From: Planctomycetota bacterium
GTDB taxonomy: Bacteria; Planctomycetota; MHYJ01; JACQXL01; JACRIJ01
Assembly (NCBI GenBank): GCA_016220095.1
Contig: JACRIJ010000044.1
Span: 4,191-68,190 of the forward strand
DNA: 64,000 nt
Direction of reading: 5' to 3'
Each line of letters begins with the position of its first letter. Positions within the stretch are counted from its first letter, which is position 1. This document shows positions 27,894 through 53,787 of this stretch, one piece after another. The position numbers were made by a program, and so were the translations under genes. Under the pieces are notes generated by a model. The model was not told the origin of the DNA. It did not search any database and was given only the letters and a program-made list of their open reading frames with translations.

Positions 27894-28225
27894 ATTACAA
27901 GATTGCGAAGATTGGAAGATTACGGGCCACTGATTGTAACTGCACTGTCTTATGAAATCCTGGCAAACACTCTGCACCTGAAAGTGCGCTGAGAAGGCGT
28001 TTTACCGCAGGCAAGGGCATTCTTTTCGTATATGACTTCTGAAGCCACGGATGGCTTTTGATATGCCTTTTTTGACTTTCCCTGCCCCGCTCCCGGCAAA
28101 TCACCGTTTATGCGATTCTCTTTGTTTTTCATATCATTATTATACCACAGCCATTGCCAAAAAGTCAAGAAAAACACCGTACATTATACGAAGAAGGAAG
28201 AATGAAAAATGAAGCATGAAGGACG

Positions 28226-28325
28226 TCATCCGAGTTCCGAGCGTCGGGTCCCGGACGCCGGATCTCGGACCTCGGATCCCGGGTTCCGTTTAAACGGGCC
28301 ACGGGAAACGGGAAACGGGTCACGA
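28226..28325. repeat. CCGAG-periodic repeat element (family C), copy 3, in reverse orientation.
   Basis: ccgagttccgagcgtcgggtcccggacgccggatctcggacctcggatcccgggttccgtttaaacgggccacgggaaacgggaaacgggtcac. Confidence 0.55.
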
Positions 28326-28367
28326 ATCTTCGTTGTTCAGTCGTTTAGTTGTTGAGTCATTGCAGAT

Positions 28368-29039
28368 TTACTTCTTCAAAACTCTTATCGCATTTTCGGC
28401 TGAAAACTTGACGTCGTTTGAAAGGTCAGTCCTTAGCAATTCCTCTATGGCCGGCAGGGCTTTTTCGCTTTTTATCTTCGTCAACGCATTGATGCTCGTC
28501 GCGCGTACGTACGGATTGTCATCTTTAAGCATTTCAATAAATCTATCCTCAAACTCCCGCCTCTTCATCAGCCCCAGCACATAAATGCCCATCTTGCGCA
28601 CGTTCGGCTCCGGGTCTCCCATCATTTCCTCCAAATACGGCACCGCGGCATCGCCCTGACGTGAAACCATCAAAGTATATTTCTCCATTCCCGCACGATT
28701 GCCCGCGATAGCGGATTTTTTCAGGCCTTCTATGGCGTCCGCCGTTGTAACCTTGGCCTGGCCTGCCGGATTTACGGCAGTATTCCCGGATTCGCCGGAA
28801 GCCGAAGATGAATCCGCATTGCTTCCTGCCGGACTAACCGGCAAATCTGTCATCTTGCCCGGTTCTTTAGAGCTGTCCTTAACTGTCTTCTCCCCAGGAA
28901 CCAAAGAATCCGCACCATTATGGCCGGCGTTCTCAGTTCCATTATGTCCGTTATTGCCCGCAAAAAAAGTAAAGTAACCGATTGAAACTGCGCCGCATAA
29001 GACGGCTGTTATGCTTATTATAAATGCTGTTTTGCTCAT
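28368..29039 (-). CDS. Membrane-anchored HEAT-repeat (PBS-lyase-like) protein.
   Basis: The N-terminal TM is FIISITAVLCGAVSIGYFTFF. The HEAT-like repeats are DPEPNVRKMGIYVLGLMK, DDNPYVRATSINALTKI and LSNDVKFSAENAIRVL. It overlaps the upstream gene by 4 bp (ATGA). Confidence 0.6.
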   Translation of the reverse strand: MSKTAFIISITAVLCGAVSIGYFTFFAGNNGHNGTENAGHNGADSLVPGEKTVKDSSKEPGKMTDLPVSPAGSNADSSSASGESGNTAVNPAGQAKVTTADAIEGLKKSAIAGNRAGMEKYTLMVSRQGDAAVPYLEEMMGDPEPNVRKMGIYVLGLMKRREFEDRFIEMLKDDNPYVRATSINALTKIKSEKALPAIEELLRTDLSNDVKFSAENAIRVLKK

Positions 29040-31885
29040 AGACTCCGTCCCGCCCTTTTTCCTTTTTCATTCTTTATTCTTCGTATAAACCTTGCCGCGA
29101 AAATCAATCCAGCCGCAAGCAGAAGCAACATTGCGGGCAGGCGGGAAAAGCCGCTCATTTCTTCAATCATGCACCTGCCGCCGCTGTCTTTTTTCCCGGC
29201 TTCTTCAAGCGGCGCATCAGTCAAACCGTCATCCGCGGGCGGATTGTACACTAAGCCGCCGTCATCAACGGGCGGCTGGTCGGCTGGAGGTTGCTCTGCG
29301 GGCGGCTGGTCCGCAGGGGGCTGGTCGGCCGGGGGTTGGTCAGCAGGCGGTTCATCCGGAGGAGGCGTCGGCTCCTCAACAACAGGCGAAACCGCCGCAA
29401 GGGGCGTATTCCCAAACGCTCCCATATTTATCCTGCCGCCGTTAGGTTCGGTCTCATTCGCGTACGCATCCAGGGGATCGCCGGCATCTATGGTAGGCTG
29501 GCCGGCAGTTTCCCTGAAATCATCGCCTGATTCGTCAATAAAAACAACGTCCTGTGAAATATCGGTCGTTGCCGGCGTTGTATTTGAATAGTCGCTGACA
29601 AGATTGCCGTACACATCATTATAAGAACTGTTAACAACAGCGGAACTCATCGCGAAAACGCCGTAGCCGTAATTCCGGATGAAAATATTGTTTTTAATAT
29701 TCGCCGTGGCATTGGCTTCCACCATTACCGCATAGGTGCATCTGCTGATTGTATTATTGATAATATCCGCGGCGGAATCGGTACGCACAAGAATTGCGGT
29801 GGACTGGCCGACAAAAATGCAGTTTTTTACCGCGACATCAAGCTGATTCGTATCGATGCCGGTATCGCCTCCCTTGAATGTAATGCCGGAAATCGTGCCC
29901 GGCGCTCCGGTGCCGGATATTATCTGAAACATCGGCGATGAACTCAAAAGAGAACCGTTTAATATTGTATTGCCGTTTGCCGCGCCCGTAACGGAGACGC
30001 CGGCCTTCAAAGACACCGTGTCCTGGAAATAATAAATACCCTCGCTTAGCTGTATGGTTTCACCGCTCTGTGAAGCTGTTACGGCTTCGGAAATATTATT
30101 ATAAACGGTATTCAAAATTGAAACCGACATATTTGACGGCGTGGTTGACGCCCCCACGCCCGCGCTCTGCAGGCCGTCGTAATCCTCGGCAACAAGATAA
30201 AATTCATAAGTCATCCCGCCTGTGAGATTCTCTACTGTAGCCGAAGTTGCGTCCGTGATTTCAGTGTAAGGCCCGTAAACGCCGCCTGTTGCCCTGTAGG
30301 TCAACAAATATGTATCCATATCCGTGCTTGCGCTTGCCGTCCAGGACAATTCCACGGATGTTGAACCCGGCACCGCTGTAAAATCAGACGGCGGCAGAGG
30401 CGCTTCAACTATCCAGAAGTCCTGTATTTCAGTCCATGCGGAATACGCGCCGCTGGGATCCTTGCTTCTTACCGCGTAATAGATATGCGTATTATCCGGA
30501 TACGACTGCGGCAATTGCGTGCTCAATGCCGTTGTCAACGGATATTCGTAATATGTGCTCAGGACTTCACCGTCAACATCGTACCTGACTAAATACGACA
30601 GCGCATCGCTATCCGGGTCACTGCCGGCGCCCCATGAAAAAACCGGCTGGCCGGAAAGCGCCAGCTGGGAATCCGCGGGATTAAAACCTGACGCAGGCGC
30701 CGAAGGCGGCTCATTCTGACCTTCAAAGGCATATAACGTGCCTGCCGTAGTCACAACATATATCCTACCATTCGCTATTACCGGAGCCGCATACACGTCT
30801 CCGTCAAGGTCCTCGGAATCCGCTACAGCGCCGTCCGAGGTATTAAGCACGTATAATTTATTGTCTGCCTGCGAACCTGCAAATACATACTGGTCGGTCA
30901 CGGCAGGCGCACCGGCGTAAACCGTATTGGACGCGTCGCCTATCGCGGCCGCGCCCGCCCATGCGGGAGAAAGCGTCACGGCATCAAAGGCAAATACCGC
31001 CATGTTCGGATACCCCGCAATGACATAAAGATTGCCGGAACTCAACGCTGGCGAACACGGCACCGACTGAGTCCATGCAGGAACGATGTCCGGATTGCTT
31101 AACGGCTGTTCCAACTGTGCCGTCATGGTAGTATCAAGCGCGTAAACTTTAAGGTTAAATGTGCCGGGGACAATATATATCTGATTATTATAAACGAGGG
31201 GCGAAGACAGATTCGGCGTGCCATCGCTCAGGAAGCTGTAGAGCACTGCCCCGTTGTCCGCGATATCCAATGCGTAGAACATGCCGCTATTGCATCCTAT
31301 ATACAATACGCCATCAGCTATAACCGGCGAAGAATACACAGTTTGTTCCAATACCGTTTCCCATTGAGATTCGCCCGAATAGGCGCTTAATGCCATAACC
31401 TTATTATTCGGGAATCCGGAACCGATATAAACGATGCCGTCTTCAATGACAGGAGAAGACATCTCGGTAGACCCTGTATAATATGTCCACAACTCAATGC
31501 CTGTAACGCTGTCAAGGCATATTATGTAACCGTCAATCGCAGAAACGTACAACCTGCCCAGAACTACCGCGGGACTGCTGTAAAAACCGGCGTATTTCCT
31601 GGACCATACCGCCGACTGGTCGGATTCCTTGTAAGCCTTGACATAACCGTCCTGGGTGCACACGTAAATCATACCGTCCGCAACCGCGGGAGTTGAATAT
31701 ATGGGACTGCCTACGGAAACAGACCATTTCTGGGCAATCGGCAGTGTTATAGTCTCCGCGGAACGCCGCGTGCCCGCCGAATCCCCGCTGTATGAAACCC
31801 AGTCAGCCGTGAACAACTGCCTTATATCAAATAACTGGGTTGCAAGCAGGCAAATAAATAAACACAGCAGAATCTTAAATCGCAT
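29036..31885 (-). CDS. 949-aa surface protein. It has a signal peptide, a PQQ-like beta-propeller, two FN3-like domains, a right-handed beta-helix, a (PPADQ)x6 stalk and a C-terminal TM anchor.
   Basis: The N-terminus is MRFKILLCLFICLLATQLF. The propeller blades include GMIYVCTQDGYVKAY, GRLYVSAIDGYIICLD and GVLYIGCNSGMFYALD. The beta-helix includes NNTISRCTYAVMVEANATANIKNNIFIRNYGYGVF. The stalk is PPADQPPADQPPADQPPAEQPPADQPPVDDGG. The C-terminus is LPAMLLLLAAGLIFAARFIRRIKNEKGKRAGRSL. Confidence 0.75.
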   Translation of the reverse strand: MRFKILLCLFICLLATQLFDIRQLFTADWVSYSGDSAGTRRSAETITLPIAQKWSVSVGSPIYSTPAVADGMIYVCTQDGYVKAYKESDQSAVWSRKYAGFYSSPAVVLGRLYVSAIDGYIICLDSVTGIELWTYYTGSTEMSSPVIEDGIVYIGSGFPNNKVMALSAYSGESQWETVLEQTVYSSPVIADGVLYIGCNSGMFYALDIADNGAVLYSFLSDGTPNLSSPLVYNNQIYIVPGTFNLKVYALDTTMTAQLEQPLSNPDIVPAWTQSVPCSPALSSGNLYVIAGYPNMAVFAFDAVTLSPAWAGAAAIGDASNTVYAGAPAVTDQYVFAGSQADNKLYVLNTSDGAVADSEDLDGDVYAAPVIANGRIYVVTTAGTLYAFEGQNEPPSAPASGFNPADSQLALSGQPVFSWGAGSDPDSDALSYLVRYDVDGEVLSTYYEYPLTTALSTQLPQSYPDNTHIYYAVRSKDPSGAYSAWTEIQDFWIVEAPLPPSDFTAVPGSTSVELSWTASASTDMDTYLLTYRATGGVYGPYTEITDATSATVENLTGGMTYEFYLVAEDYDGLQSAGVGASTTPSNMSVSILNTVYNNISEAVTASQSGETIQLSEGIYYFQDTVSLKAGVSVTGAANGNTILNGSLLSSSPMFQIISGTGAPGTISGITFKGGDTGIDTNQLDVAVKNCIFVGQSTAILVRTDSAADIINNTISRCTYAVMVEANATANIKNNIFIRNYGYGVFAMSSAVVNSSYNDVYGNLVSDYSNTTPATTDISQDVVFIDESGDDFRETAGQPTIDAGDPLDAYANETEPNGGRINMGAFGNTPLAAVSPVVEEPTPPPDEPPADQPPADQPPADQPPAEQPPADQPPVDDGGLVYNPPADDGLTDAPLEEAGKKDSGGRCMIEEMSGFSRLPAMLLLLAAGLIFAARFIRRIKNEKGKRAGRSL
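29271..29360. repeat. 15-bp tandem repeat x6 encoding PPADQ.
   Basis: ggcggctggtcggct ggaggttgctctgcg ggcggctggtccgca gggggctggtcggcc gggggttggtcagca ggcggttcatccgga. Confidence 0.8.
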
Positions 31886-31928
31886 ACTAAACTCCTTTAT
31901 TTTTCTTAAATCTAAAATCTTAAATATC

Positions 31929-34900
31929 TTACGGCGTCGGGTCTATCAGCGGTTCAATATAAAATATCTTGCCCTGACTCGTGCCTATCATATATTTATC
32001 GGCGTCAATATCGTACGAAACCGAAGTAATGTCATGGTTCTGTCCAAAGTAATAATAATAACTTGTGCCGCTGTCGGGATTGCTTACAACCGCGCCGGCT
32101 GAAATATCAATGCCATATATCTTGCCGTTGTTATTGCCTATATATACGAGGCCGTCGCCGATGGTCAAAGGCGTACAGGAAATCTGCACGGCTTCAAGCT
32201 GGATGACAAACGAAGATGCGTCAAATGCCGCATCGGTCTTCGGGGTATTATTCGTTGGTATGGCGTAGAACTTGCCGCCGCTGTCGCCGAAGAACAACAT
32301 GCCCGAATCATCCCACGGAGCGGCCGTAATGCCCGCAGGCACCCTATTGCCTGTCAGTGTATGAGCGGCTCCGGGCCACGGATAACTGGCCACCTCGGCC
32401 GCAAATCCGCCGTAAGGCGATACCGCGTGCACCCATCCTTTATTGGCATTCTGCGAACCGTCATCGGTGACATACAGGTAACTTGACAGCATGGTAGGCG
32501 ACTTGAAGCTCCCGTTCGTATTGCTTATTGAGGCATTAACGACTCCGCCGTCAACATTAATTCTTTCAATCAACGCGCTTCCCGCAACAAAATCAGTTCC
32601 GAGAAACAACCATGTCGTACCGGCATCAACCACAGAAGAAGGCACCGTGTAAATGGCCTTGTCAATAAGTATGTGGCTCACGGGGAAAGACGCCACGCGC
32701 ACCTTGGTGGCTTTATTATAACCAAACAAATATGCCTTGGCATCATCACCGGTGCCTCCGCAATAAATGTTATTATCGTCGGTAATCACCGGCGCTGTAG
32801 CCGGGCTGTCCGTGGCAGGGCTAATGTCAAGGCCGCCAACCCACGGTCCTGCGGCAATATTCAGCGCGGCGCCTGTATCAATCAATTTGACTATCTTGCC
32901 TTTCGTAGTGCCGAAATATATCGTGTGCAGGATTTCCACAACATTAGCGTCACCATCGCAATCGCTTGTATCAACTTCATTATCCCACCATGGCGTACCG
33001 ACGATGTCGCCGCTCGCATCCGGAAGGTCGTAGTAATACACGGGGCTCTTAAGTTTCCCGTCATTGGCAAGCACATAGATGCGGTCAACGGTATTCGCGC
33101 CGTTTATATTACGCGATGCCACATAAGTGGAATACCATCCGGGCACGCCCAGGAATCCAAAGGCATTGGTCGGGAATCCCTGCACAGCCCCCTTAATATC
33201 CGGGTTTGCCGTATAAGTCCAGTTAACTGCCGCACTTGTAACTGTTTCAGTTGCGCTTCCTGCGCCGTTGCCGTTTGTAGCGGCATCCCTGTATTCAAAT
33301 GTCACGCAGACCGACTGGCCGTCCGCAGGCGCGGTATCAATCACTGCAACGCTGTATCCGCCCGGCAGATATGTATCGTCAAAATATACATCAGCCACTG
33401 CCAGTGAAATCGGTCCGTTTTGTTCTATCGTAAGGTGCCTGCCTCCGACAGTGGCATTATAGAATGCCACGGCAGTTAGGGAGGTTATTGCCGCGGTATT
33501 GGTAATATAAAATCCTTTGCCGCCGGTATTAGTATTATATACATCCAAAGCAGTAATGTTGACAGTGCCGTTCAATGTAATATCATAGTATGCCGTCGCG
33601 GGAATTGAACTCAATATGGTGCCGCCGGACGCGGTAAACGCCGCCGCAGAAGCAACCGTAATTACCGAACCGTTGGTCAGGGTAATTGAAGAGCCGGTAT
33701 TCATCGAAAGAGTGCCGCCCGAAACGGTCAAGGTGCCGGAAGCCGGCGCGACCGTATCGCCTATGGTCAAAGCGAGGCCGTTAAGGCTGAAAGTGCCGGA
33801 CTGCAGGGTCAGCAGATTCTTCACGACAACGTTACCGGTCAATTGAGTTGTTATAGCATTTGTATTTATTTTCAGGTTATAAAAAGTTCCCGCGGGAATA
33901 TTAGGCGACACCAACTGGTTGTCCACCGTAACAGTGCCTTTATCGGTACTGATAGTACCCCAGGCGGTGGTATTGCCGGTAACTTTAAGTTCATCGGCAG
34001 TATCGCCGAAAGTAACCGTACCCAGATTATTAAATGTCCCTGATATCTTAATGGTACCGCCGTTAGCATCGTTGGTATCTGAATCCGGCATCTGTATATT
34101 GGAACCGACCTGATTAGTAAAATTCCCGGTCACATTAAGAGTCCTGAAATCCTGCACCGTAATAGTGCCGGAATTATCAACGTTTCCGGAAATCGTCGCA
34201 GAACCTGTAAGGGTATTAATAGCCCCAAAAGTAATAGAGGCGTTTACGCCGAGAGTAGCGTTGCCGCTTATTGTAGTTGTAAGAGAACCCGCTGTTGCGC
34301 CGACCGCAATACTCGCGGTACCGCTCATTGTTACATTACCGTCTATAAGAAAAACCTTCGGACTGGCGCCGCCGGTGGAATATGAAAATGTTGCCGATGT
34401 CATATCAAAACTGCCATGTATTGTAAAACTTATATCATTGCCGCTTATGGACAATGTCCTGCCGTTCTCCATTGTCAAACTGCCTATCTCCACTGAACTT
34501 GAAATAGACGGGTTATTCGTAACTCCAGCTGTAGGTATTACAACCTTGCTGTAGTTCCCAGGAATGGTTAAATTATCTTCCCAATTCAACGGGTCCGTCC
34601 ACACAGCGCTGGTATCGCCTACCCAGGTCTTCTTAGGCCATCTGATAGAACCTGACGTATCCGGGTCAGCGCCGTTCTGCGGGTCTATTTCGTAAGTGCC
34701 GCCGCTGTTCGCGCCGCCGTACGCGGTAAAAGAAATAGCCGGGTTCTGGGCGCCACCGGCCGCCTGGACGTTATTGGTGCAATACGCGTCAAAAGTGCAT
34801 CCGCTGAAGGTCATTCCAGACATGGTTGTATCATTCAATACAAGGTAAACGCCGGACGCAGAGCCGGTTGTCTTACTGAATACGACTCTGTCTAAGGCAA

Positions 34901-43900: not shown

Positions 43901-45248
43901 AATTGCCTTGGATGTCAATGGAGCCTGTCGTGATATTCTGTATGGTAAAATCGCCGTAATTATTGAAATCGCCGCCCACGTCCAGGTAAACGTTCGTACC
44001 TGCCGCGACGCCCCATACGACTGAACCGGCCGCACCCGCTCCGGTATCCGCTTCAATGGTAAAATCACCGGCAACGTTTAACGTCCTGCTGCTGTTAGAG
44101 GTCAGGTTGCCCCCGTCTTCGATAAGAAGAGAAGCTACATTTGCGTCCGTATTTAAGTTTGGCGCGAACTGGTTTGCAAGCGTTGATTCATCGGGAATAA
44201 TTATACGATCGGCGCCTGTAGGAGTTGCATTAGGATTCCAGTTATTGGATGAGCTCCATTGGGTAGTGCCGTTGCCGGCGTCCCATTTCTTTTCCACCCA
44301 GACGATGCTCCCGGGAGTTATTATGCCGCCGCTTGTCTTATCGTCTTCCCATGTCACACCGCCTTTTGTCCCGCCGTATCCGACCATGGATACGGAACTG
44401 TTCGGCGTACCCGCGGTAGTCCTTATGTTATACTGGCAATAGGTATCAAACGTGCAATAGCTTACGCTGTAAGGCGCCTGCGACCAGTCGTTCAGCAGAA
44501 ATTGCAGATAAACGCCGGCTTCAAGCCCGTCGCTATCCGTAAAGTTTATGCCGCCGATGGTCTGCGTCAGTGACGCGGTATTGACAATCTTGAGGCCTTC
44601 GTTATCGGGATTCGTTATGTTCAAATCGGAAACATCGAGAGAACCGCCGTTCTGAACTATGAAAGAAAGCTTTGAACCCGTATCGGCAATGCTCGGAACG
44701 GAACCGCTTGAATTAAACGTGCCTTCAACAACAACTGCCTTGACATTCATCTGGCAGGAGTTTACCATGTAAAAAGACGCACCGTTGTTAACCTTAAACT
44801 GGTTCAACACGGTAATCGTATCGCCGGCATCCATGGTAAGCTTGCTTGAAACCGTAACGTTATAAAAAGTAGGCGCCACGAGGCACGTGCCAATGGTGGA
44901 ATTACTGCCGTTGAATTCCACGGTTGACGTACCGTAATTGAAAGTGCCGTTGTCAATGAATTCGCCGCCTATCCTCAGGGTCGTTACACCGGCTCCCAAA
45001 GAAAGCGTTTTCATGTCGTCTATCTTCAAATTACTAAATGACTGCGTGGCACTGCCGTTGACGGAAGAACTCGTGCCCGTGAATATGACGGTGGAACCGG
45101 TGCTGGTAAAAGTGCCGTTATTCGTCCACGCATTGACAATTTTTACCGGCATGGCAAGTGTAAATGATTTGGCATTGATGATTTCCAGGTCATAGAATTC
45201 CGTCGTGCTTGTGCCGATAACGTACACGGGAGAACCGTTACAACTCAA
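31929..45248 (-). CDS. Giant secreted repeat protein, downstream part (4439 aa): six super-repeats plus a C-terminal beta-propeller. It is almost certainly continuous with 45311..48106 through a -1 frameshift.
   Basis: The ORF track gives 4439 aa. The modules recur with (G)SI(R/Q)WP(A/K)K(K/Q/T)W(N/V)G...W(S/T)xxxNWxPxG(V/K)PxxxxKV(I/V)IP, (G)C(S/T)FDxxCQYN(V/I), L(N/V)G(L/V)NF(Q/A)NP(D/G)DNG(L/M) and ITINGN(F/W)xNNGTFT. The last 550 aa or so are propeller-like (IYCGGTGDDAKAYLFGYN, GLVYIGNNNGKIYGID). Confidence 0.85.
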   Translation of the reverse strand: MSCNGSPVYVIGTSTTEFYDLEIINAKSFTLAMPVKIVNAWTNNGTFTSTGSTVIFTGTSSSVNGSATQSFSNLKIDDMKTLSLGAGVTTLRIGGEFIDNGTFNYGTSTVEFNGSNSTIGTCLVAPTFYNVTVSSKLTMDAGDTITVLNQFKVNNGASFYMVNSCQMNVKAVVVEGTFNSSGSVPSIADTGSKLSFIVQNGGSLDVSDLNITNPDNEGLKIVNTASLTQTIGGINFTDSDGLEAGVYLQFLLNDWSQAPYSVSYCTFDTYCQYNIRTTAGTPNSSVSMVGYGGTKGGVTWEDDKTSGGIITPGSIVWVEKKWDAGNGTTQWSSSNNWNPNATPTGADRIIIPDESTLANQFAPNLNTDANVASLLIEDGGNLTSNSSRTLNVAGDFTIEADTGAGAAGSVVWGVAAGTNVYLDVGGDFNNYGDFTIQNITTGSIDIQGNLFNTGTVTNNIAAANAFFTVRGDMVNSGALTPVSINIFGNWDNTGMVTPGAGTVYFKGVNRTIASGLGSYFKVNFPSTSSYTATDDFTITDTLVLAGYLKVQKAISIPATFTPAGGTLELNGSISQSIPAKTYNNLVINNLSSTVTLQGNIVVNGNLTINQGATLSGGNSQITINGNFINNGTFNGSSSTVVFAGANSEVQGISMPTFNNVTISNNATLTITNTGETIKVSGNWQDNNAATAGFVSGNSTIIFTGASSVINGVVADTFNNISLENTCTLSIGAIGQVKLRGTFTNSGTFSAGTSMVIFNGTNGGVAGANLGFYNLQCDGKLVVNTGDVVTVTNQLTVSTTGTLYMSNDGTIRTPAVTVNGTFQTTDTPTLTDTGTKFSFTVNNAVAILNINGLNFANPDDNGMRIVSAASLNIDNVNFTNSDTLQTGYYLRLEMAGITANKYVFSGCSFDRYCQYNVYIPASAAASALSMIAASGEKGDELYEYESGSGYVAGGDMVWPIRQWDGGGSTQNWSEAANWAPDGVPVQGEKVKIGSPSTAPVYNGTTEYPILNTNATIGSLILEDGSRLDTTGNNRQLVITGGLTIESDLGEGSAGQLNFTSGGTTSKLEIQRDVSNGGAISVSNAITFTINGNLTNTGSFTNAASSASFTIGGSVTNSGVFSPVTVSISGSFTNSATFTAGAGTITLKGANSSLTSGGSSFNNLTIISSAVYSAADSLTVSGALSVEGTLKIKNGITMSGTFSSTAGVMEFSGTAVQTVPQPPGGASYHDLHIENTSAAVSLGGDVTVSGDIVIGISANFNAQAYTVNLTGNWTNDGTFTPSTSKVVFKGVPSSVSGISVTEFNNIEIFTVKTLTIGAINQLKVKGNWVNNGAFTQIFSTVYFTGVSCDISGTTVTNFYNMEISNGTVLGISTATGTLKIQNIFTNNGSFTAGDDTLEFNGGNSSLAGTNPLITYNTTVSGTLNLNSGDDLKANNAVLVTGVLNMADTCYLRVGVSCTIQGGTFSTSGSTPVVTNTGAKYSFTVNNSGKVLLNGLFFQNPNDNGLNIAANANTSIDIDNVTFSDSDGLFQGTYITLGYTSIAAYTYSFQGCTFNDGCQYNVSTTNNVGVVNNAVTMSGDSGLRTGETYENDKGGGVVAGGGSIVWRVIRWEGDVNQFWSSAGNWNTGTIPTASDKVIIPSPDDRVGAANDPVLDINATVGSLMIYDGTVFSTSGTNRTLRVNNQLFIESNQGYGSAANLNFTSSGVGSLFNAGTIQNEGTVSSAAEIFNVSGTLTNAGFFTSTSPSFAVTGDLNNTGNFTTGNMIITGSFTNSGTFTPGAGTVTLNGTTGNVTMGSALFNSVTIPTGSVYTALDTFALSSTFTLSGYLKVKTGITFGTTFTEAGGTVDFNGTSAQTMPAETYNVIIVSNTSAGGVTAGGAIAAVDLTVNNSSVFIGGGNTITINGKWTNNGTFTSQTSNVTFAGAASTIEGTAVTTFNNLSVTNTLTVNVSEIKVNGTFSNTGTFTASNSTVTFNSGSSQIAGNAGTVFNNLKINTGATLSDVTNDVRVKNIWNNIGTFTPGSTVIRFTGSTGTIEGNATTFYQLKIAGTLTMDGSDDITVSTGLTVLSGGTFNLTGNSILRLGVTGATIEGTFTSSGTTPTVTDTGSKYAFTVGTVSGAGIVVLNGLNFQNPGDNGLNITTNAGTGFDVDNVSFTDPGDSSGVGVFLKIDKIVASSTYAFTGCSFDSGCQYNVQTANGSIAASMVVKIQGYSGAKSGGAYENDNAAGQQNPGDPDNTGSIQWPAKKWNGSVSTSWSTANNWTPSGVPSTAERVIIPSPSEFTGALAQPTLNITTTLASLEIQDGAVLTASANDIKLTVNGTLVIQSNLGEGVGQFNYSCAGATSSLLLKGAVTSGGTMSVSNAVTFTMESNFTNSGTFTNATAFTLKGSLTNSGTLTPGNMTVTGSWSNTNIITTPSGTVTFNGVAGTIASGGQSFYSLKVNSGCAYTANDSISMNAGGTLTLPGTLKLKSGITFGAAFDSTGGTLEFNGTVVQSIPTAPSSYNNITVSNTSATVSFGAVVTLNGTLTIATNAVVNAGAYTIVVSGDFTNNGTFQKGTSTITFSGAPSTIGGTSITEFNNVTISATKTLQIGAIGTAKVYGVWTNNNAFTTGSSTVIFTGIASSIAGSAVTEFYNLTVDTGVTMSIDAGIAQAKVKNVFQNDGTFTANSSTVYFTGTTAEVKGANASTFYNVQVTGTLALNAGSDITVSNALTVTSAGTLSMNGSSVLRLGTPSTAGSAAIQGLFQTSGLTPTVTDKGAYFSFTVSGASGKVLINNVTFNNPDANGLSISNTANTGFDIDYASFTSSAYLAGRTYIKINFTAGSYSFAGCSFDANCQYNVFTPSGAIAGGLVVNLLGASGSKAGGTYENDDNNGSQLPAPPANNPDNTGSIRWPAKQWVGTVSNLWSVDNNWNPIGKPQAGDKVVFPTGASNYPVSIDINSTVAGIQIQDGASVSAAAADKQLTLNGNLTLDADGGAAGVPTFTFSSGGLGSLTINGTFTTGSGSSISISSPAFTANGDVTNSGSLTIGSASSTINGKVTNSGTLVLNANITVNADWNNGGSAVFTPNTTTVTLRSSNGTIDSGGDAFYNLTIPTTYTFTANDALSVSNILTVNGMLKIKSSLSVTTTFDNTNGTIEYNGTAIQNVTAFTTYNSITISNTSATVSAGGNFTTNNITINNNAVLDGNGKTITVNNIWTNDGSFTANGSTVIFSGTPSTVAGNNITQFANITIPNTKSLSLSGVSTIKIAAAWTNNGGTFNSGSSTVTFTTASGVINGSATTEFNNITVDGGTLVESVTTNFIDLKGTFSLINSGAFTCGDSEVRFTGLGGATSGTMSFFKITITGTGKLTLDAGDDVTVQSTLAVNASGKLDMQNSCNLRLGTAIAAGTLTFNGDFSTTDTLAKPAINAVNNGNRYSMTFSTSGTVDINGLNVIDPADTGMVMANVGADPSFALDRVVFSKTTGSASGVYLVLNDTTMSGMTFSGCTFDAYCTNNVQAAGGAQNPAISFTAYGGANSGGTYEIDPQNGADPDTSGSIRWPKKTWVGDTSAVWTDPLNWEDNLTIPGNYSKVVIPTAGVTNNPSISSSVEIGSLTMENGRTLSISGNDISFTIHGSFDMTSATFSYSTGGASPKVFLIDGNVTMSGTASIAVGATAGSLTTTISGNATLGVNASITFGAINTLTGSATISGNVDNSGTITVQDFRTLNVTGNFTNQVGSNIQMPDSDTNDANGGTIKISGTFNNLGTVTFGDTADELKVTGNTTAWGTISTDKGTVTVDNQLVSPNIPAGTFYNLKINTNAITTQLTGNVVVKNLLTLQSGTFSLNGLALTIGDTVAPASGTLTVSGGTLSMNTGSSITLTNGSVITVASAAAFTASGGTILSSIPATAYYDITLNGTVNITALDVYNTNTGGKGFYITNTAAITSLTAVAFYNATVGGRHLTIEQNGPISLAVADVYFDDTYLPGGYSVAVIDTAPADGQSVCVTFEYRDAATNGNGAGSATETVTSAAVNWTYTANPDIKGAVQGFPTNAFGFLGVPGWYSTYVASRNINGANTVDRIYVLANDGKLKSPVYYYDLPDASGDIVGTPWWDNEVDTSDCDGDANVVEILHTIYFGTTKGKIVKLIDTGAALNIAAGPWVGGLDISPATDSPATAPVITDDNNIYCGGTGDDAKAYLFGYNKATKVRVASFPVSHILIDKAIYTVPSSVVDAGTTWLFLGTDFVAGSALIERINVDGGVVNASISNTNGSFKSPTMLSSYLYVTDDGSQNANKGWVHAVSPYGGFAAEVASYPWPGAAHTLTGNRVPAGITAAPWDDSGMLFFGDSGGKFYAIPTNNTPKTDAAFDASSFVIQLEAVQISCTPLTIGDGLVYIGNNNGKIYGIDISAGAVVSNPDSGTSYYYYFGQNHDITSVSYDIDADKYMIGTSQGKIFYIEPLIDPTP

Positions 45249-45310
45249 CTTTGAAGTGCCGTAGTTAAAAGTTCCGTTATTTGTTAACGTGCTGTTATTG
45301 GCGTTTAATG

Positions 45311-48106
45311 TTATGTATAGGTGCCGGCGCTGAGCGTCGCCAGGGAATTTATCGTCAGCGTACCGTTCACCAATGTATTGCCCGCGAGGGAAACCGCCGC
45401 GGAGGTATTGCTTATCTTGAGGTTATTGTACGTCCACGCCGGCACTGTCTGGGCCGCTGTGCCGTTGAATTCCACCGTGCCCGTGGTGGACGAAAACGCG
45501 CCGCTTACGGATATCGTACTCGTTACCTTGATCGTGCCGGGCAAGGTTAAATTGCGGTCAATTACCAAACTGTCAAGGGCCGTATATACCTTGCCGTTAT
45601 TAATATCCACATCGTAGAAACTTGAAGCGCCTCTGGTGATATTGCCCATGGAACCATTAAAAATGACCTTTTTGTTATTGTGCGTATAGGAAGCGGAATT
45701 GGTCCAACTGCCGCCTACGGTCACGTTGCCGGGGTTAAATGAACTGGTATTAACGACGTTTCCGCTGATAGTAAAAGTACCGCTGACACTTGCGGTAAAA
45801 CCGGCGTTATTTTCAACGTTCCCGCTGATGGTGCAATTCAGCGCCGTTATGCTTATCGTGCCCGAAGATACGACGTTTCCCGATATGGTAAGCTGTGAAC
45901 CGACCACGGACTCGTTATAAGTAAATGCCGCAACGCCGTTTCCGTCATCAGGATATAATACCAGGGCGCCGCTTATGGTCAACGTCCTGCCGACGCCGTC
46001 AGTCGTTAACTGCGCGCCGCTTTCAATTTCAATTGACGCCGCAACGCCGTTGGCATTAAGGACGGGATTATAGGTGACTTTGGGAATCCGCACCCTTTCC
46101 GTCGCCAACGGAACTGAAGCAGGGCTCCAGTTGCCATTGGTATTCCACGAAGTAAGATTGCCCACAGTGCCGCCAACCCATGTCTTTTTCGGCCATCTTA
46201 TGGAACCGTTATCGTCAGGAGCGCCTGCGGTAACCTTGCCGAGGGACTGGTCGTCTTCATACTGACCGCCGCCTTTGCCGCCGGTATAACCCTGCATGGT
46301 AACAGTCTCAGTATTCCATGTCCCTGCGGATAACGTACGCACGTTAAATTGGCAGGCAAGGTCAAATGTGCAGTTTGAAAAAGTATATGAAGTGCCTGTA
46401 GGGTCAAAAGAAAAGTTCAGATAAACGCCGGATGCCTGGCCGTCGGTATTCGTAAAATTAATGCTGGCAAGGCTGAGAGCCGCGGGTTTTGTGGTAAATT
46501 TCATGCCTTCGTTGTCCGGGTTCTTGAAATCAAGCCTGGAAATACTGATATTGTTGGCGGAACTGAAAGTCCACGTAAAATACGCGCCCCTGTCAATAAC
46601 GGTCGGTGACAATGTGCCGTTAGCCGTAAAGTTTCCGCTTATTGTCGCGGACGTACCTACTCGCAAAGTACAATTATCCGTCAGGGTCAAAGTTCTGCCC
46701 GCGGCTACTGTTATAGTATTAACGGCAAGATCGTCGCCGGCGTCAAGAGTTAACGCGCCTGTAGCCGAAATAGTGCACGTGTATAATGTCAACGGCGCCG
46801 TACCGAGCAATGCACAGGAGCCGCCGTTATAAGTCACTATCCTTGTCCCTGGGACAAACGTTGATTGGTTGTTCGTCCAATTGCCGTTGACCGTATAGTC
46901 GGCAAGCGCAGTTGCGGACACTGTAGCGCTTATGATTATATTATTAAATGTCTCCGCGGCATCTGGCAGAATGGGATTGCTTCCTGAAAATACCACCGTA
47001 GAAGTACCTTCTGCAAATGCCACATCTCCGATGTTATTATCCCACGTACCGCCGTTGATGGTTATGGTATTGGCATTGGCATTTACGGCTGTCGCGCTTT
47101 GCATAAAAAATGTGCCGAGAACTGAAAAAGACCTGCTGATAGTAAACGTAGCGCCGGCCTTGTTCAACGTAAGATTATTGAAAGACGAATCCGCGGCGCC
47201 GCCAAGGGTAGCAGTATTGTCCGCGGCAGTCATGGTTACGGTATAGTTGCCGGGATTAAATGTGCCGTCGCATGTCCAGTTGTCCGTTACAATAATATTT
47301 GTATTGGCTGTCATGACACAGCTTGCGTTGATCTTTAATCTGTAAAATTGCGTGGGATTTGAACCCGCTGTAACAGTCCCGGCGGTCCCGTTGAATTCCA
47401 CCGAACATGTATTGCCTTCAATAAATGAGCCGGTTTCAATAAAATCGCCTTTCACGCGCAAAGTGCAGGTTGCCGTACTCGCGTCAAGGGTCATGCCTGT
47501 GGGAATAACCATGGAAGGCACTTCAAGAATGGAATTAGCTACAAAGATCTCAAAAACGCCGCTGTTCGTCCATGTAAAATTATTGTTTACAACCAGTTTA
47601 GTCGCCGTGGCATTACCCAGGAAAACGAGGTTATTTGAGCCGTCAAGGTCGGCAAACTCCAGGTTATCCACGGATAAGGTATCCGTAGCATTATCAGCTT
47701 CTATATAAACATCCGAACCTGAAGACATCTTCAACTTAAGAAAACCCGTTCCGGTCAGATAAGCGGTCGCATTGCCGCTGGAAAGAAGCTGGACATCATC
47801 CCGGACGAGCAGGTTATTGTCCATAATAAGCGTTGCGCCGGCCCTTATCTGAAAATCATTCACCTCGGACGGCTGATTCAATATGACGTAATCGCCGGCA
47901 TTATTAATAATCGCCAGATCGCCTTCCCTGGGCACGCTGTTGGAACTCCAGTTCGCAGGATCGCTCCATGAAATGCCGTCTCCGCCGCCGTCCCATGTCC
48001 TGGTCGCGGCAACCGCTCCGCCTGCAAAAAGGCATAAAAACACAAGACAAATCATTGCGCGTAAAAACAGACGCCTGAATCTGACAGGTTTAAAAATCCC
48101 TATCAT
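45311..48106 (-). CDS. Giant secreted repeat protein, upstream part (931 aa, signal peptide plus two super-repeats).
   Basis: The N-terminus is MIGIFKPVRFRRLFLRAMICLVFLCLFAGGAVAATRTWDGGGDGISWSDPANWSSNSVP. AGGAGG lies 4 nt upstream of the ATG at 48106. The internal module start GSIRWPKKTWVGGTVGNLTSWNTNGNWSPASVP is the same as in 31929..45248. It ends ...LTINSLATLSAGTYT*. Confidence 0.85.
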   Translation of the reverse strand: MIGIFKPVRFRRLFLRAMICLVFLCLFAGGAVAATRTWDGGGDGISWSDPANWSSNSVPREGDLAIINNAGDYVILNQPSEVNDFQIRAGATLIMDNNLLVRDDVQLLSSGNATAYLTGTGFLKLKMSSGSDVYIEADNATDTLSVDNLEFADLDGSNNLVFLGNATATKLVVNNNFTWTNSGVFEIFVANSILEVPSMVIPTGMTLDASTATCTLRVKGDFIETGSFIEGNTCSVEFNGTAGTVTAGSNPTQFYRLKINASCVMTANTNIIVTDNWTCDGTFNPGNYTVTMTAADNTATLGGAADSSFNNLTLNKAGATFTISRSFSVLGTFFMQSATAVNANANTITINGGTWDNNIGDVAFAEGTSTVVFSGSNPILPDAAETFNNIIISATVSATALADYTVNGNWTNNQSTFVPGTRIVTYNGGSCALLGTAPLTLYTCTISATGALTLDAGDDLAVNTITVAAGRTLTLTDNCTLRVGTSATISGNFTANGTLSPTVIDRGAYFTWTFSSANNISISRLDFKNPDNEGMKFTTKPAALSLASINFTNTDGQASGVYLNFSFDPTGTSYTFSNCTFDLACQFNVRTLSAGTWNTETVTMQGYTGGKGGGQYEDDQSLGKVTAGAPDDNGSIRWPKKTWVGGTVGNLTSWNTNGNWSPASVPLATERVRIPKVTYNPVLNANGVAASIEIESGAQLTTDGVGRTLTISGALVLYPDDGNGVAAFTYNESVVGSQLTISGNVVSSGTISITALNCTISGNVENNAGFTASVSGTFTISGNVVNTSSFNPGNVTVGGSWTNSASYTHNNKKVIFNGSMGNITRGASSFYDVDINNGKVYTALDSLVIDRNLTLPGTIKVTSTISVSGAFSSTTGTVEFNGTAAQTVPAWTYNNLKISNTSAAVSLAGNTLVNGTLTINSLATLSAGTYT

Positions 48107-48231
48107 ACATCCTCCTATATATATTTATTCCATTACCAAACCGCTAAAGGCGGTTCCGGAGATTGAATCGTCACTGCCTGCCACAGTCCTGTCGCAATCC
48201 TGAGCGGAGCGAAGGGAGTAAAACGAAGGGC

Positions 48232-48300
48232 AAATTCCCTGCAGCTTACTGCAGGGAGCTTCAATCCCGCCCCGCATGATTTGTTCATGCGGGTTATTTT
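48232..48300 (+). repeat. Family D hairpin element copy d (reverse orientation), immediately followed by a terminator-like stem-loop with a T-tract on the plus strand.
   Basis: aaattccctgcagcttactgcagggagcttcaa, then cccgccccgcatgatttgttcatgcgggttatttt (stem ccgcatga/tcatgcgg followed by TTATTTT). Confidence 0.5.
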
Positions 48301-49423: not shown

Positions 49424-49486
49424 GGATTAGACGATTGAAAGATTAGAAGATTACAAGATTAGAGGGTTACAAGATTTAGAAGATTT
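49424..49486. repeat. Decamer AGATTnnAAG array.
   Basis: gattagacgattgaaagattagaagattacaagattagagggttacaagatttagaagatt. Confidence 0.8.
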
Positions 49487-49519
49487 TGGACGTTCGTCCT
49501 TGATTTTTCATATTTTCGT

Positions 49520-49948: not shown

Positions 49949-49972
49949 GAACCCGTCTTGGGGGATAAAAAA

Positions 49973-53785: not shown

Positions 53786-53787
53786 CT

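Follow-up and report, generated by a model that had tools for sequence, protein, structure and literature searches.

Giant surface proteins of 5-10 thousand residues, which are repetitive, secreted and predicted to have an adhesion or surface role, are described as common in Planctomycetes (Reva & Tummler 2008, via PMC5177795; West-Roberts et al., bioRxiv 10.1101/2023.11.21.568195). An enlarged periplasm has also been described for these bacteria (PMC7716846). Two other types of system are relevant. Cys-type tripartite C-terminal signals cut by CPBP 'myxosortases' provide a precedent for protein sorting (Haft 2023, bioRxiv 10.1101/2023.06.07.544157; PMC11980579), and RiPP systems that combine radical-SAM/SPASM proteins with PqqD are covered by an overview (PMC10114670).

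The locus described here lies in a window of 64,000 nucleotides, the whole stretch of DNA that was analysed. The window's proteins are NCBI entries MBI5359728-37 of a 'Planctomycetes bacterium' MAG, and the flanks encode an acyl-CoA dehydrogenase, an enolase-superfamily enzyme, an aminotransferase, a restriction-modification (R-M) system and PilM. An earlier sequence-only reading had considered a reduced-genome episymbiont, which the Planctomycetes MAG and the ordinary metabolism encoded in the flanks do not bear out. Four ORFs with a combined span of 19,739 nt (30.8% of the window) encode a giant protein, a partner protein and a HEAT-repeat protein; a small peptide gene lies beyond them. The best explanation, given roughly an even chance, is a conserved cell-envelope cassette of Planctomycetota and related bacteria, most likely building a long surface fibre or adhesin. 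The features are the following.

48921..48950, minus strand: candidate operon promoter, predicted from sequence; sigma-70-like consensus TTGACA-18-TATAAT with TG extension, 12/12
45311..48106, minus strand: giant gene, 5' part, 931 codons; encodes the signal peptide (residues 1-35), super-repeat 1 and 289 residues from the start of super-repeat 2
46181-47995, minus strand: super-repeat 1
45311..45316, minus strand: 1-nt frame change (-1) splitting the giant gene; adjoins TAA, without slippery heptamer
31929-45248, minus strand: giant gene, 3' part, ORF of 4439 aa; frame open from 45314 (31929..45314)
44286-45314, minus strand: remainder of super-repeat 2
42366-44285, 40428-42365, 38514-40427, 36561-38513 and 34626-36560, minus strand: super-repeats 3-7
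31932-34625, minus strand: divergent eighth unit and C-terminal region of the giant
31932..33320, minus strand: C-terminal eight-bladed PQQ-like beta-propeller of the giant, about residues 4930-5392
29036..31885, minus strand: partner, 949 aa; signal peptide, propeller, Ig/FN3-like segment, fn3, beta-helix, stalk, C-terminal tail
30716-31732, minus strand: partner PQQ-like propeller (Pfam Beta-prop_ACSF4 1.8e-51, PQQ_2 7e-32)
30182-30394, minus strand: partner fn3, residues 498-568 (Pfam)
29570-30001, minus strand: partner right-handed beta-helix, residues 629-772 (Pfam Beta_helix)
about 29237-29365, minus strand: partner Pro-rich PPADQ stalk
29039-29188, minus strand: partner tail SGGRC(905)...TM(913-934)...RRIKNEKGKR
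28368..29039, minus strand: HEAT-repeat protein, 223 aa; N-terminal TM helix at residues 5-23
28386-28640, minus strand: HEAT_2 (PF13646) at residues 134-218 of the HEAT protein; 62.8 bits against a threshold of 27.7, E 3.8e-17
28139..28168, minus strand: predicted peptide promoter, sigma-70-like, TTGACT-18-TATAAT with TG, 11/12
27950..28132, minus strand: small basic two-Cys peptide, 60 aa, ...KKAYQKPSVASEVIYEKNALACGKTPSQRTFRCRVFARIS*; HMM E 9e-21

The three large genes form the tightly spaced, operon-like trio described earlier. The giant gene has the strong ribosome-binding site (AGGAGG, 5 nt ahead of the ATG at 48106) and, in its N-terminal hydrophobic segment, the signal peptide previously claimed. 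It is separated by 43 nt from the partner gene, with AAGGAG 7 nt ahead of the partner ATG at 31885, and the partner stop overlaps the HEAT ATG as ATGA at 29039-29036. About 815 nt separate the candidate operon promoter from the giant ATG downstream of it. The predicted peptide promoter ends 6 nt ahead of the peptide ATG, and the peptide gene and the acyl-CoA dehydrogenase gene are convergent.

The upstream frame of the giant gene terminates as ...LSAGTYT-TAA at 45313-45311, and the downstream frame is already open at the junction, reading ITLNANNSTLTNNGTF... from 45314. A -1 join of both ORFs yields 5,392 aa and is in register within a block also present in the paralogous repeats (AYTVNLTGNWTNDGTF, AYTIVVSGDFTNNGTF). 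In a relative with 90% identity, the giant product is a single uninterrupted protein of 5,388 aa, encoded in an independent assembly that is collinear with the window. Downstream of the break, 3,315 codons aligned with this relative give a dN/dS of 0.074 (dS 0.79), with only 5 gap columns in the alignment. For these reasons, and because a sequence scan found no X XXY YYZ slippery heptamer at the break, the two large ORFs are read as one gene with a predicted product of about 5,390 aa, and the earlier proposal of a single gene split by a -1 shift stands. The break itself is probably a consensus or assembly error or a very recent mutation. As far as the sequence shows, the frameshift is not a programmed one, in view of the missing heptamer and the relative's single product.

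It is very improbable that the giant is a pseudogene in this strain or that the contig is mis-assembled. A genuine stop codon does interrupt the frame, the downstream ORF lacks both an RBS and a signal peptide, and a homologue in a second MAG is broken at a G6 run. However, the low dN/dS over the 3' part and the intact, collinear gene in the independent assembly argue against this reading. Moreover, the super-repeats are only 30-42% identical to one another at the protein level, and DNA repeats within the gene reach a maximum of 93% over 27 nt, which is too diverged for collapse. The divergence of the repeats thus speaks against an assembly collapse, a danger that the sequence-only reading had itself raised.

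Both sequence and predicted models show the giant as a Sec-exported repeat protein consisting of a signal peptide, seven right-handed beta-helix super-repeats of about 640 aa and an eight-bladed C-terminal propeller. Its composition (T 14.0, G 11.6, S 10.2, N 9.9%), its single, N-terminal hydrophobic segment and the AlphaFold model of one super-repeat unit (a beta-helix, pLDDT 84.7) agree with the earlier picture of a secreted Thr/Asn/Gly/Ser-rich beta-solenoid. Each module opens with a G8-like cap, W..GG..W...NW..P..D.V.I, and closes with a conserved C.FD..C pair. The G8 domain (PF10162) scores 18.2 bits on residues 52-98 against a gathering threshold of 22.9, and in relatives 27.5-27.9 bits at repeat starts, with no stretch above threshold alone; what the modules have in common with G8 is limited to the W..W..P..D.V.I cap motif at the N-terminus. 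Sequence searches matched the super-repeats to nothing in Pfam, NCBIfam or the PDB, and neither Pfam nor NCBIfam listed PATR (PF12951 / TIGR02601) for the giant at E <= 0.01. The earlier statement that none of the three proteins is assignable to a named family therefore holds for the giant, but the partner and the HEAT protein carry named domains. Among the giant's remote homologues, one has a T9SS tail domain and one is named 'fibronectin-binding autotransporter adhesin' by JGI. The window's MAG also holds a giant paralogue of 4,207 aa.

The terminal propeller is the most conserved part of the giant (94-95% identical to the 90% relative) and has no Pfam match. In the AlphaFold model of the C-terminal region, which is of moderate confidence (pLDDT 63.7), the last 420-460 residues or so match eight-bladed propellers (Tako8, E 1e-11, target-normalised TM-score 0.75; BamB; YxaL). 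Structure prediction for the giant and Pfam for the partner thus support the view that one protein ends in a propeller and the next begins with one. The similarity between the two propellers is weak (pairwise E 2e-4).

The partner, named 'PQQ-binding-like beta-propeller repeat protein' by NCBI, has both N-terminal and C-terminal hydrophobic segments. Of the two FN3 domains claimed for it, the one at residues 498-568 was found by Pfam, but segment 390-500 has no fn3 match. The Pro-rich stalk is also present, but as five PPA[DE]Q units plus PPVDD instead of six PPADQ units. The tail, in full SGGRC905 ... LPAMLLLLAAGLIFAARFI ... RRIKNEKGKR, had been described as a TM anchor; it is better read as a candidate Cys-type tripartite C-terminal sorting signal. 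It combines an extreme C-terminal position, a Cys signature, a transmembrane helix and a basic cluster, and orthologue tails have the form ...GACGLTGLEVLILLALLRRRR and similar. It looks like a cleaved signal rather than a plain anchor because Cys905 is nearly invariant across 11 partner orthologues, a Gly-rich signature precedes the helix, an Arg/Lys cluster follows it, and some orthologues carry a CTERM-type domain. Orthologues P0192, P0194 and P0197 match CFI-box-CTERM (NF041770, cut-off 40 bits) at 96-102 bits (1e-27 to 1e-29), and the window's own tail gives no match to this model. Among curated NCBIfam CTERM models at E <= 10, the tail finds only PID-CTERM (E 1.4, not significant). No CPBP-like protease gene was found among the scanned ORFs of the 64-kb window, and in one relative an Rce1-like gene is located about 9 kb from the cassette. 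The window also encodes a beta-helix protein of 1275 aa whose C-terminus reads ...GKGCFIKILFHKRKNG, a hint of a tail type shared with the partner.

The HEAT protein ('HEAT repeat domain-containing protein' in NCBI) matches its earlier description as TM-anchored: a low-complexity linker of about 100 residues joins its N-terminal TM helix to the HEAT_2 domain. An extracytoplasmic site for the cassette is supported by the N-terminal hydrophobic segments of all three proteins, the Cys pair in each giant module and the two remote homologues of the giant named above. A search for outer-membrane translocation devices (autotransporter barrel, TpsB, T1SS, T9SS tail, PEP-CTERM) came up empty in both the giant and the window; consequently, surface exposure of the giant is assumed. 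This result also bears on a possible, though rather unlikely, alternative, in which the giant would be a rod in an enlarged periplasm and the partner helix a permanent inner-membrane anchor, so that the role would be structural and not adhesive; that the N-terminally anchored HEAT protein would also hold the rod forms part of the same rather unlikely proposal. Such a scaffold is consistent with the lack of a detected outer-membrane export signal or machinery in the giant or window, with the single hydrophobic helices of the partner and the HEAT protein, each compatible with inner-membrane anchoring, with the absence of any sorting-signal model matching the window's tail, and with the enlarged periplasm described for planctomycetes (PMC7716846). 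A permanent anchor does not, however, fit well with the tail's nearly invariant Cys, Gly-rich signature and Arg/Lys cluster, or with the three orthologues in which a CTERM-type domain is recognised. In addition, the tail is the fastest-evolving region of the partner (51% identity, omega 0.6).

The beta-helices also allow for a role in polysaccharide processing, in which the giant modules and the partner's NosD/pectate-lyase-like beta-helix would bind or cleave glycans. Their targets would be either the cell's own exopolysaccharide or algal or particle glycans. This proposal, targets included, is improbable: the structural matches, at 7-15% identity, go no further than the fold, neither a catalytic motif nor a match to a CAZy-type family turned up, and no EPS genes adjoin the cassette in the window. 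Furthermore, seven tandem modules under purifying selection suit a rod better than an enzyme.

The gene order of the cassette is kept in relatives at about 30-37% identity. With L009 and L010 taken as one locus, a protein ending in a giant-type propeller lies directly upstream of the partner gene in 10/11 relatives with upstream DNA. The homologue of the giant C-terminus is directly upstream in L006, L007, L008, L009, L010, L011, L012, L014, L015 and L017, lies within about 130 nt of the partner gene in L020 and is absent only in L019. Directly downstream of the partner gene, the HEAT protein follows in 8/11 relatives (L007, L008, L012-L015, L017 and one further locus); its gene is missing in L009/L010, L011 and L091. 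Locus L091 is a paralogous giant-partner pair with the peptide, located on a second contig from the same sequencing run as L006; a 90% cluster lists its giant together with HZA48_10860 of the window's MAG. In this repeat family, giants with a Peptidase_C25 terminus lack a partner gene. As shown by sequence comparison and predicted models, the giant-partner pairing is kept across about 30% identity and is repeated at the paralogous locus of a close relative; most loci, but not every one, also have the HEAT protein and the peptide. Because this arrangement is conserved in distant relatives, the giant-partner-HEAT linkage is stronger than the sequence-only reading could know.

The fourth conserved gene (27950-28132) was absent from the earlier description. 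Its product looks like a RiPP precursor. No NCBIfam model recognises the peptide family (…YE.x.LACGK…C…S*). The peptide recurs in ten loci, with homologues in L007, L008, L013-L018 and L091, and is missing from the loci of several relatives. In L091, its gene is placed between giant and partner. In L007 and L008, PqqD and radical-SAM/SPASM genes follow the first peptide gene at a distance of 1.7-4 kb, beyond some intervening genes, and methyltransferase genes also lie downstream. A further JGI locus, in which a 43-aa ORF is followed by methyltransferase, PqqD and SPASM genes, is apparently a third such layout.

Quinohemoprotein amine dehydrogenase has a small cross-linked subunit. By analogy, a SPASM-cross-linked peptide might be a subunit, ligand or cofactor of a PQQ-like propeller, with a redox or sensing role besides the fibre. 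The recurrence of the peptide with the cassette, including the giant-partner interval in L091, the maturase and methyltransferase genes in L007 and L008, the similar layout in the JGI locus and the PQQ-like propellers of both neighbouring large proteins are consistent with such a complex. It is nevertheless decidedly improbable, since no export signal was found in the peptide, the maturase genes (PqqD, radical-SAM/SPASM) are absent from the 64-kb window, no named RiPP system scores above cut-off and several loci have no peptide. Gene adjacency alone is also no proof of a physical complex.

In the preferred reading, that of a surface fibre or adhesin, the giant, rising about 4.8 Angstrom per coil, would extend to a rod roughly 100 nm long. 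The partner would be directed to the cell surface and retained there by its Cys-containing C-terminal signal, like MYXO-CTERM proteins via CPBP-type proteases. It may be conjectured, purely by inference, that the partner docks the giant's terminal propeller through its own; the fibre would therefore be held non-covalently. The HEAT protein may act as a periplasmic adaptor or chaperone, and the peptide may be matured by a radical-SAM/SPASM and PqqD system encoded elsewhere in the genome and have an accessory role. The frame break would be an assembly error or very recent mutation. Attachment to a host or to particles, as suggested earlier, is a plausible candidate function.

The giant shares a Sec signal peptide and a right-handed beta-helix passenger with type Va autotransporters. 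However, neither of its ORFs matches the autotransporter barrel (PF03797) in Pfam or NCBIfam, and its C-terminus is an eight-bladed propeller. Searches for two-partner secretion gave no Haemagg_act or TPS match, and the genes next to the giant encode the propeller partner, the HEAT protein and housekeeping functions; for T1SS RTX proteins, the giant has no HemolysinCabind match and the scanned window ORFs include no T1SS genes. Compared with known type V and two-partner adhesins (Vag8, Hap, Pet, Ag43, TibA, EtpA, FHA), the giant is 8-14% identical and has no C-terminal beta-barrel, N-terminal TPS domain or TpsB partner; its cassette partner is instead a propeller/FN3/beta-helix protein.

Both cassette propellers are of the PQQ-like eight-bladed type known from BamB and from archaeal or bacterial 'cell surface proteins' (PDB 3hxj; the Cake and Tako designs derive from these), but here they occur as fusions, one with a giant beta-helix and the other with FN3 and a beta-helix. 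The partner reaches 113 and 95 bits against BamB cut-offs of 285 and 423 (TIGR03300 / NF008351) and 54 bits against 480 for PQQ-dependent dehydrogenase (TIGR03075), and its 949 aa include extra FN3, beta-helix and tail regions relative to the BamB lipoprotein of about 390 aa. Its tail resembles the MYXO-, JDVT-, Synerg- and CGP-CTERM class in its Gly-rich signature with a nearly invariant Cys, hydrophobic helix and basic cluster, but has about 8 residues from Cys to helix, matches no model and has no CPBP protease gene in the window; the likeness to CFI-box-CTERM (NF041770) lies in three orthologues and not in the window's own tail. In relatives, one or two genes for short Cys-containing peptides have PqqD-like chaperone, SPASM maturase and methyltransferase genes within 1-4 kb on their downstream side, a layout that resembles SPASM/PqqD RiPP systems. 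These maturases fall below the SynChlorMet cut-offs (TIGR04248-04251; ScmC 28.8 versus 125 bits, ScmE 103 versus 400), and the window's peptide differs in having no adjoining maturases.

The closest likeness in kind is to the giant genes of Planctomycetes and other PVC bacteria: the cassette giant is of the same size class, repetitive and secreted, and such genes occur several per genome. The cited papers handle giant genes as a size class, and searches of published texts for related terms and of the wider literature did not reveal the 640-aa super-repeat, the propeller terminus or the partner/HEAT/peptide cassette. Giant proteins are ordinary in Planctomycetota; what is new is the cassette.

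Four open reading frames on the minus strand, 19,739 nt combined or 30.8% of the window, are bordered on either side by plus-strand genes. Their positions and their share of about 30% agree with an earlier sequence-only reading. A fourth gene, small and missed by that reading, was located by following up short ORFs downstream of the HEAT gene in relatives. The giant, its partner, the HEAT protein and this small peptide are referred to below as the cassette.

45311-48106, minus strand: 5' ORF of the giant gene (ORF call)
31929-45248, minus strand: 3' ORF of the giant gene (ORF call)
29036-31885, minus strand: partner gene, 949 aa (ORF call)
28368-29039, minus strand: HEAT protein gene, 223 aa (ORF call)
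27950-28132, minus strand: gene for a 60-aa basic two-Cys peptide, homologous to short ORFs of relatives
26742-27893, plus strand: acyl-CoA dehydrogenase gene, convergent with the four-ORF block
49520-51130, plus strand: recombinase fragment and trypsin-like protease gene, divergent from the four-ORF block

The translation signals noted earlier (strong RBS, 43-bp spacer, ATGA overlap) can all be found in the sequence. AGGAGG lies 5 nt ahead of the giant ATG at 48106, AAGGAG precedes the partner ATG at 31885 after a giant-to-partner spacer of 43 nt, and ATGA joins the 949-aa and 223-aa genes. No terminator-like site was found in the giant/partner and partner/HEAT junctions, and matches within coding sequence are near chance level. 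The G+C content of the cassette (0.47-0.51) is slightly higher than that of its flanks (0.43-0.48).

Taken as a whole, the earlier reading was borne out as an observation, including the giant gene, the gene trio and the propellers, and partly supported as an interpretation; its framing as a reduced-genome episymbiont is not supported. The window proteins correspond to MBI5359728-MBI5359737 of a MAG labelled Planctomycetes/Planctomycetota bacterium by NCBI (locus tags HZA48_, 69-kb contig), and the flanks of the cassette encode ordinary metabolism and housekeeping functions. An episymbiont, CPR or Omnitrophota origin is contradicted by the NCBI source names.

The intergenic region of 1.4 kb located 5' of the giant gene (48107-49520) contains a perfect (12/12) sigma-70-like promoter-type site at 48921-48950 (minus strand), about 815 nt ahead of the giant ATG, small ORFs lacking a Pfam match (e.g. 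48125-48379), and a palindrome with a 19-bp stem at 49015-49056. A riboswitch or other known RNA in this region was rejected, as Rfam was empty at gathering thresholds and gave only chance-level microRNA matches at E <= 1. Short repeats are dispersed in the intergenic DNA of the window, among them a palindrome, an 82-nt element (89% identity), and AATCTT-like and CCCGTTT-like runs; they look REP- or MITE-like.

49021-49050 and about 21181-21212: repeat pair
49111-49192 and 26243-26324: repeat pair
49425-49485 and 51963-52054: repeat pair
28190-28330 with 3955-4097, 9421-9512 and 56769-56855: repeat set

A possible relic of an integrative element occurs immediately upstream of the cassette: a fragment of 142 aa (49520-49948, plus strand) that contains a serine-recombinase 'Recombinase' domain and lies near a tRNA gene (51785-51856, minus strand). 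The window also carries a type II restriction-modification pair, in which the genes for a BsoBI-type restriction endonuclease (Pfam E 4e-145) and an N6/N4 DNA methylase overlap (11452-13870, minus strand).

At the sequence level, the two large ORFs are shown to constitute one functional giant gene. The 5' frame terminates ...LATLSAGTYT-TAA, the 3' frame, open from position 45314 onward, gives ITLNANNSTLTNNGTFNYGTS..., and a -1 re-reading of one base yields a joined product of 5,392 aa that crosses the junction as ...AGTYTITLNANN.... Because the join falls inside a block common to every paralogous repeat (e.g. NAQAYTVNLTGNWTNDGTF and NAGAYTIVVSGDFTNNGTF), the break amounts to a single-nucleotide change no more than a few bases away from 45314. 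The TTG start listed for the 3' ORF has neither an RBS nor a signal peptide. In the Logan assembly SRR22387810, where the partner is listed at 90% identity (locus L006; L-numbers denote loci of relatives), the adjoining upstream gene is called as a single 5,388-aa product. This counterpart and the in-register join uphold the earlier proposal of two ORFs united by a -1 frameshift. The readable 9.9 kb of the relative's giant gene show 89.8% protein identity to residues 2078-5392 of the joined window protein, with 5 gap columns. Over these residues (3,315 codons), dN/dS between the two giants is 0.074 at a dS of 0.79, which indicates that the 3' part of the gene has not drifted as a pseudogene. 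The intact relative, the collinear identity and the low dN/dS together argue for a functional gene, and for the same reasons the frame break is taken to be either an error in the consensus or a mutation that arose very recently. Programmed -1 frameshifting was rejected, since an X XXY YYZ heptamer is missing within about 75 nt and the gene is intact in the close relative.

An assembly collapse or chimera of paralogous repeats, which the earlier reading had named as one condition that would overturn it, was ruled out as well. The super-repeats are 30-42% identical to each other in protein, the DNA repeats are short and degenerate, and the independent assembly is collinear; given this divergence, near-identical units cannot have been collapsed or chimerically joined in the assembly. 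The database record, in which the halves appear as separate hypothetical proteins (MBI5359737.1 and MBI5359736.1), is consequently corrected to one gene. A homologous giant in another Planctomycetes MAG (GCA_016209595.1, HY720_10820/10825; L004) is likewise annotated as two proteins, of 2,323 and 3,191 aa, with the frame change at a G6 homopolymer run at about 9863-9869.

The giant has a modular beta-helix-plus-propeller architecture, consisting of a signal peptide followed by seven super-repeats of about 640 aa and an eighth, partial unit.

Super-repeat starts in the giant: residues 38, 643, 1275, 1915, 2561, 3199 and 3850, with an eighth start at 4495

Each unit opens with W.GG....W...NW..P...D.V.IP, which gives recurrent sub-threshold matches to the N-terminal part of Pfam G8 and to Amnionless, and closes with C.FD..CQYNV ... 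GG.YE.D ... GSIRWP.K. By standard beta-helix geometry, some 4,800 helical residues would extend over roughly 100 nm as a rod. Homologues of 1,139-1,516 aa, some of them in Myxococcota MAGs, match the last ~900 residues at 27-31% identity. In agreement with the terminal propeller recognized earlier, a predicted model of moderate confidence (pLDDT 63.7) assigns the last ~420-460 residues to an eight-bladed propeller, matching Tako8 (E 1e-11, TMt 0.75), BamB and YxaL. Compared with the 90% relative, the propeller is the most conserved part of the giant (94-95% identity, omega 0.04-0.06) and the eighth unit the most variable (78% identity, omega 0.15).

An exhaustive profile search of cluster representatives with the super-repeat alignment returned 9,773 representatives at E <= 1e-3, of which 802 reached E <= 1e-30; a word-indexed homology search with one super-repeat gave weak matches only. 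The whole 640-aa unit is kept five to eight times in merely a handful of profile matches (P-numbers denote proteins of relatives).

P0037 (5,630 aa, one intact ORF), P0038, P0039, P0040 (Lentisphaeria cluster): whole-unit giants
P0042 and P0043: whole-unit giants, adjacent pair in another Planctomycetes MAG

P0037 and P0043 end in a Peptidase_C25 domain in place of the propeller and have no partner gene alongside; the beta-helix stalk therefore carries alternative heads. Methyltransferase/GT2 and PMT_2 genes precede P0037 (L003, 7171-9896), and a TMEM260_N-type GT-C glycosyltransferase gene flanks a paralogous giant/partner locus (L091, 2878-20643). The proximity of such glycosyltransferase-type genes hints that the Thr/Ser-rich giants are O-glycosylated. 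A literature search on crateriform or giant beta-helix proteins yielded nothing specific.

The partner comprises a signal peptide, a PQQ-like propeller (Beta-prop_ACSF4, 1.8e-51), an Ig/FN3-like segment, an fn3 domain, a Beta_helix/NosD-like domain, a PPADQ-type proline stalk, a hydrophobic C-terminal helix and RRIKNEKGKR. The domains proposed earlier were recovered except for one of two FN3 domains: a single fn3 is detectable, and the preceding Ig/FN3-like segment escapes fn3 detection. Among solved structures, its sequence is most similar to designer propellers ('Cake' series), PDB 3hxj and 'Cell surface protein' chains, followed by BamB; an assignment to BamB or PQQ dehydrogenase was rejected because the scores are far under the equivalog cut-offs. 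The 223-aa protein has an N-terminal helix, a low-complexity linker of about 100 residues and a HEAT_2 domain (3.8e-17), as expected for the membrane-anchored HEAT-repeat protein described earlier. The charge distribution around its helix suggests that the HEAT domain faces the periplasm. Extracytoplasmic targeting signals are thus present on all three large proteins of the cassette.

Gene order was compared across the loci of full-architecture partner homologues (30-37% identity) and metagenome loci found with the partner orthologue alignment. A homologue of giant residues ~4770-5392 ends the gene directly upstream of the partner in L006, L007, L008, L009/L010 (counted as one locus owing to an identical partner protein), L011, L012, L014, L015 and L017, and lies within ~130 nt upstream in L020. 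This terminus is found in 10 of the 11 loci with upstream DNA, missing only in L019. The upstream proteins range from 1,541 aa (L017) to 3,890, 4,535 and 5,388 aa, with 1,140 aa in the JGI 3300071358 locus, which is not among these 11; the giant is therefore an expanded version of a shorter core protein. An HMM seeded with three verified HEAT proteins detected an orthologue directly downstream of the partner in L007 (2e-27), L008, L012, L013, L014, L015 and L017, and Pfam detected a HEAT protein there in the JGI 3300071358 locus (8 of 11 relatives with downstream sequence; absent from L009/L010, L011 and L091). L091, a second contig of the run that yielded L006, encodes a giant of 4,207 aa bearing the same propeller type, which shares its 90% cluster listing with HZA48_10860 from the window's MAG, and then a 1,019-aa protein with a propeller, Ig-like domain, fn3 and beta-helix. 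The giant-partner pairing is therefore conserved, and the HEAT protein and peptide usually follow.

The peptide (MKNKENRINGDLPGAGQGKSKKAYQKPSVASEVIYEKNALACGKTPSQRTFRCRVFARIS) is preceded by a sigma-70-like promoter-type site (11/12; 28139-28168) ending 6 nt before its ATG. The pattern common to relatives is KKPY..P.....[YF]E...LAC[GN]K...C......S-stop, and the peptide HMM (E 1e-12 to 1e-24) detects it in L007 and L008 (two copies each), L013 to L018, and L091, where the gene sits between giant and partner. Within 1-4 kb downstream, the peptide genes of L007 and L008 are followed by genes for a SAM methyltransferase, a PqqD-like protein and a radical-SAM/SPASM enzyme; in the JGI 3300071358 locus, a 43-aa ORF (unverified sequence) stands ahead of methyltransferase, PqqD-like and SPASM genes.

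L007 13494-18782, L008 13341-18925, and the JGI 3300071358 locus: unnamed RiPP-like cluster continuing from the cassette

The L007 cluster also includes a ScmC-like protein with a signal-peptidase-like region, and NTP_transf_5 genes recur in L004, L007, L011 and the JGI 3300071358 locus. Among named RiPP systems, none reached its cut-off for the peptide and maturases; the maturase-type proteins resemble SynChlorMet weakly, below cut-off. No PqqD, SPASM or methyltransferase maturase gene was found among the scanned window ORFs, and a literature search on SPASM/PqqD in Planctomycetota yielded nothing specific. The peptide would be matured elsewhere in the genome and play an accessory role; a peptide-bearing propeller complex is a possible alternative.

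In its anatomy, the partner tail follows the three-part plan of C-terminal sorting signals that carry an invariant Cys (window: SGGRC-MIEEMSGFSR-TM-RRIK); C905 is nearly invariant across 11 partner orthologues. Metagenomic orthologues end, among others, ...PPGACGLTGLEVLILLALLRRRR, ...HSGSCGLLGLEALLVLAVLRRRR and ...GGGGGGGCGMVGLEALLFLGLLVRRSR, and three terminate in the NCBIfam CFI-box-CTERM domain (1e-27 to 1e-29), on which a literature search yielded nothing specific. The tail is the fastest-evolving part of the partner relative to the 90% relative. A separate 1,275-aa beta-helix protein with a signal peptide (4229-8056, plus strand) ends ...GKGCFIKILFHKRKNG, and the paralogous partner in L091 (15927-18986) ends ...KSKCFITTIFAGAKTGMKKAEKQIR. 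Short Cys tails of this 'CFI' type may be part of one sorting system together with the tail of the 949-aa protein. No CPBP gene was found among the scanned window ORFs, and an Rce1-like gene occurs ~9 kb from the cassette in one relative (JGI 3300071358 locus).

In the proposed mechanism, the giant would act as a surface fibre or adhesin, the partner would be sorted to the surface by its tail and dock the giant's propeller, and the HEAT protein would serve as a periplasmic adaptor. The main weakness of a surface location is that no outer-membrane export route for the giant is visible, which makes a periplasmic scaffold the strongest rival; an enzymatic, glycan-processing role is also possible. 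A 676-aa PilM_2-domain protein and then a 389-aa protein with a heavy-metal-binding-domain match are encoded at 52616-55818 (minus strand). This is assembly machinery of the type IV pilus or T2SS-like kind, located about 5.7 kb away from the cassette, and could be relevant to export. A surface-fibre system of a new kind in PVC bacteria, combining a propeller-propeller dock, a new Cys-type tail and a radical-SAM-matured peptide bound as subunit, ligand or cofactor of one of the PQQ-like propellers, is considered improbable; if true, this three-feature reading would connect a giant extracellular structure with RiPP chemistry.

Giant genes are characteristic of the Planctomycetes and of other PVC bacteria. 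To our knowledge, almost no PVC giant gene has a defined architecture, partner or export route. Two reports describe such genes as common in Planctomycetes and throughout the PVC group (PMC5177795; bioRxiv 10.1101/2023.11.21.568195). Here, an anonymous 16-kb gene is resolved into a defined module in which a 640-aa beta-helix super-repeat leads up to a terminal propeller. A terminus of this type is accompanied by a specific partner protein, in most cases also by a HEAT protein and frequently by a small Cys peptide. The association holds across ~30% identity and at two loci of one sequencing run. The claim is modest: current understanding is not overturned, and the functions proposed are predictions from sequence.

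Known type V, T1SS and T9SS signals were not found in the giant or among the scanned window ORFs, and long surface fibres anchored without them become a testable hypothesis. The partner tail resembles the Cys-type sorting class in anatomy and is not filed as a member; it shares the tripartite layout and Cys of MYXO-CTERM-type signals, while the window tail matches no curated sorting-signal model. Such Cys signals have been proposed by Haft to be processed by CPBP/Rce1-like intramembrane proteases, leading to cell-surface display (bioRxiv 10.1101/2023.06.07.544157), as Wall's group showed for MYXO-CTERM (PMC11980579). The cassette also brings to light an unnamed peptide family and a Cys-type sorting tail that may be new. 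Giant beta-helical PVC surface proteins were already known; the novelty and interest lie in the conserved cassette and its previously unnoticed peptide rather than in the giant's size.
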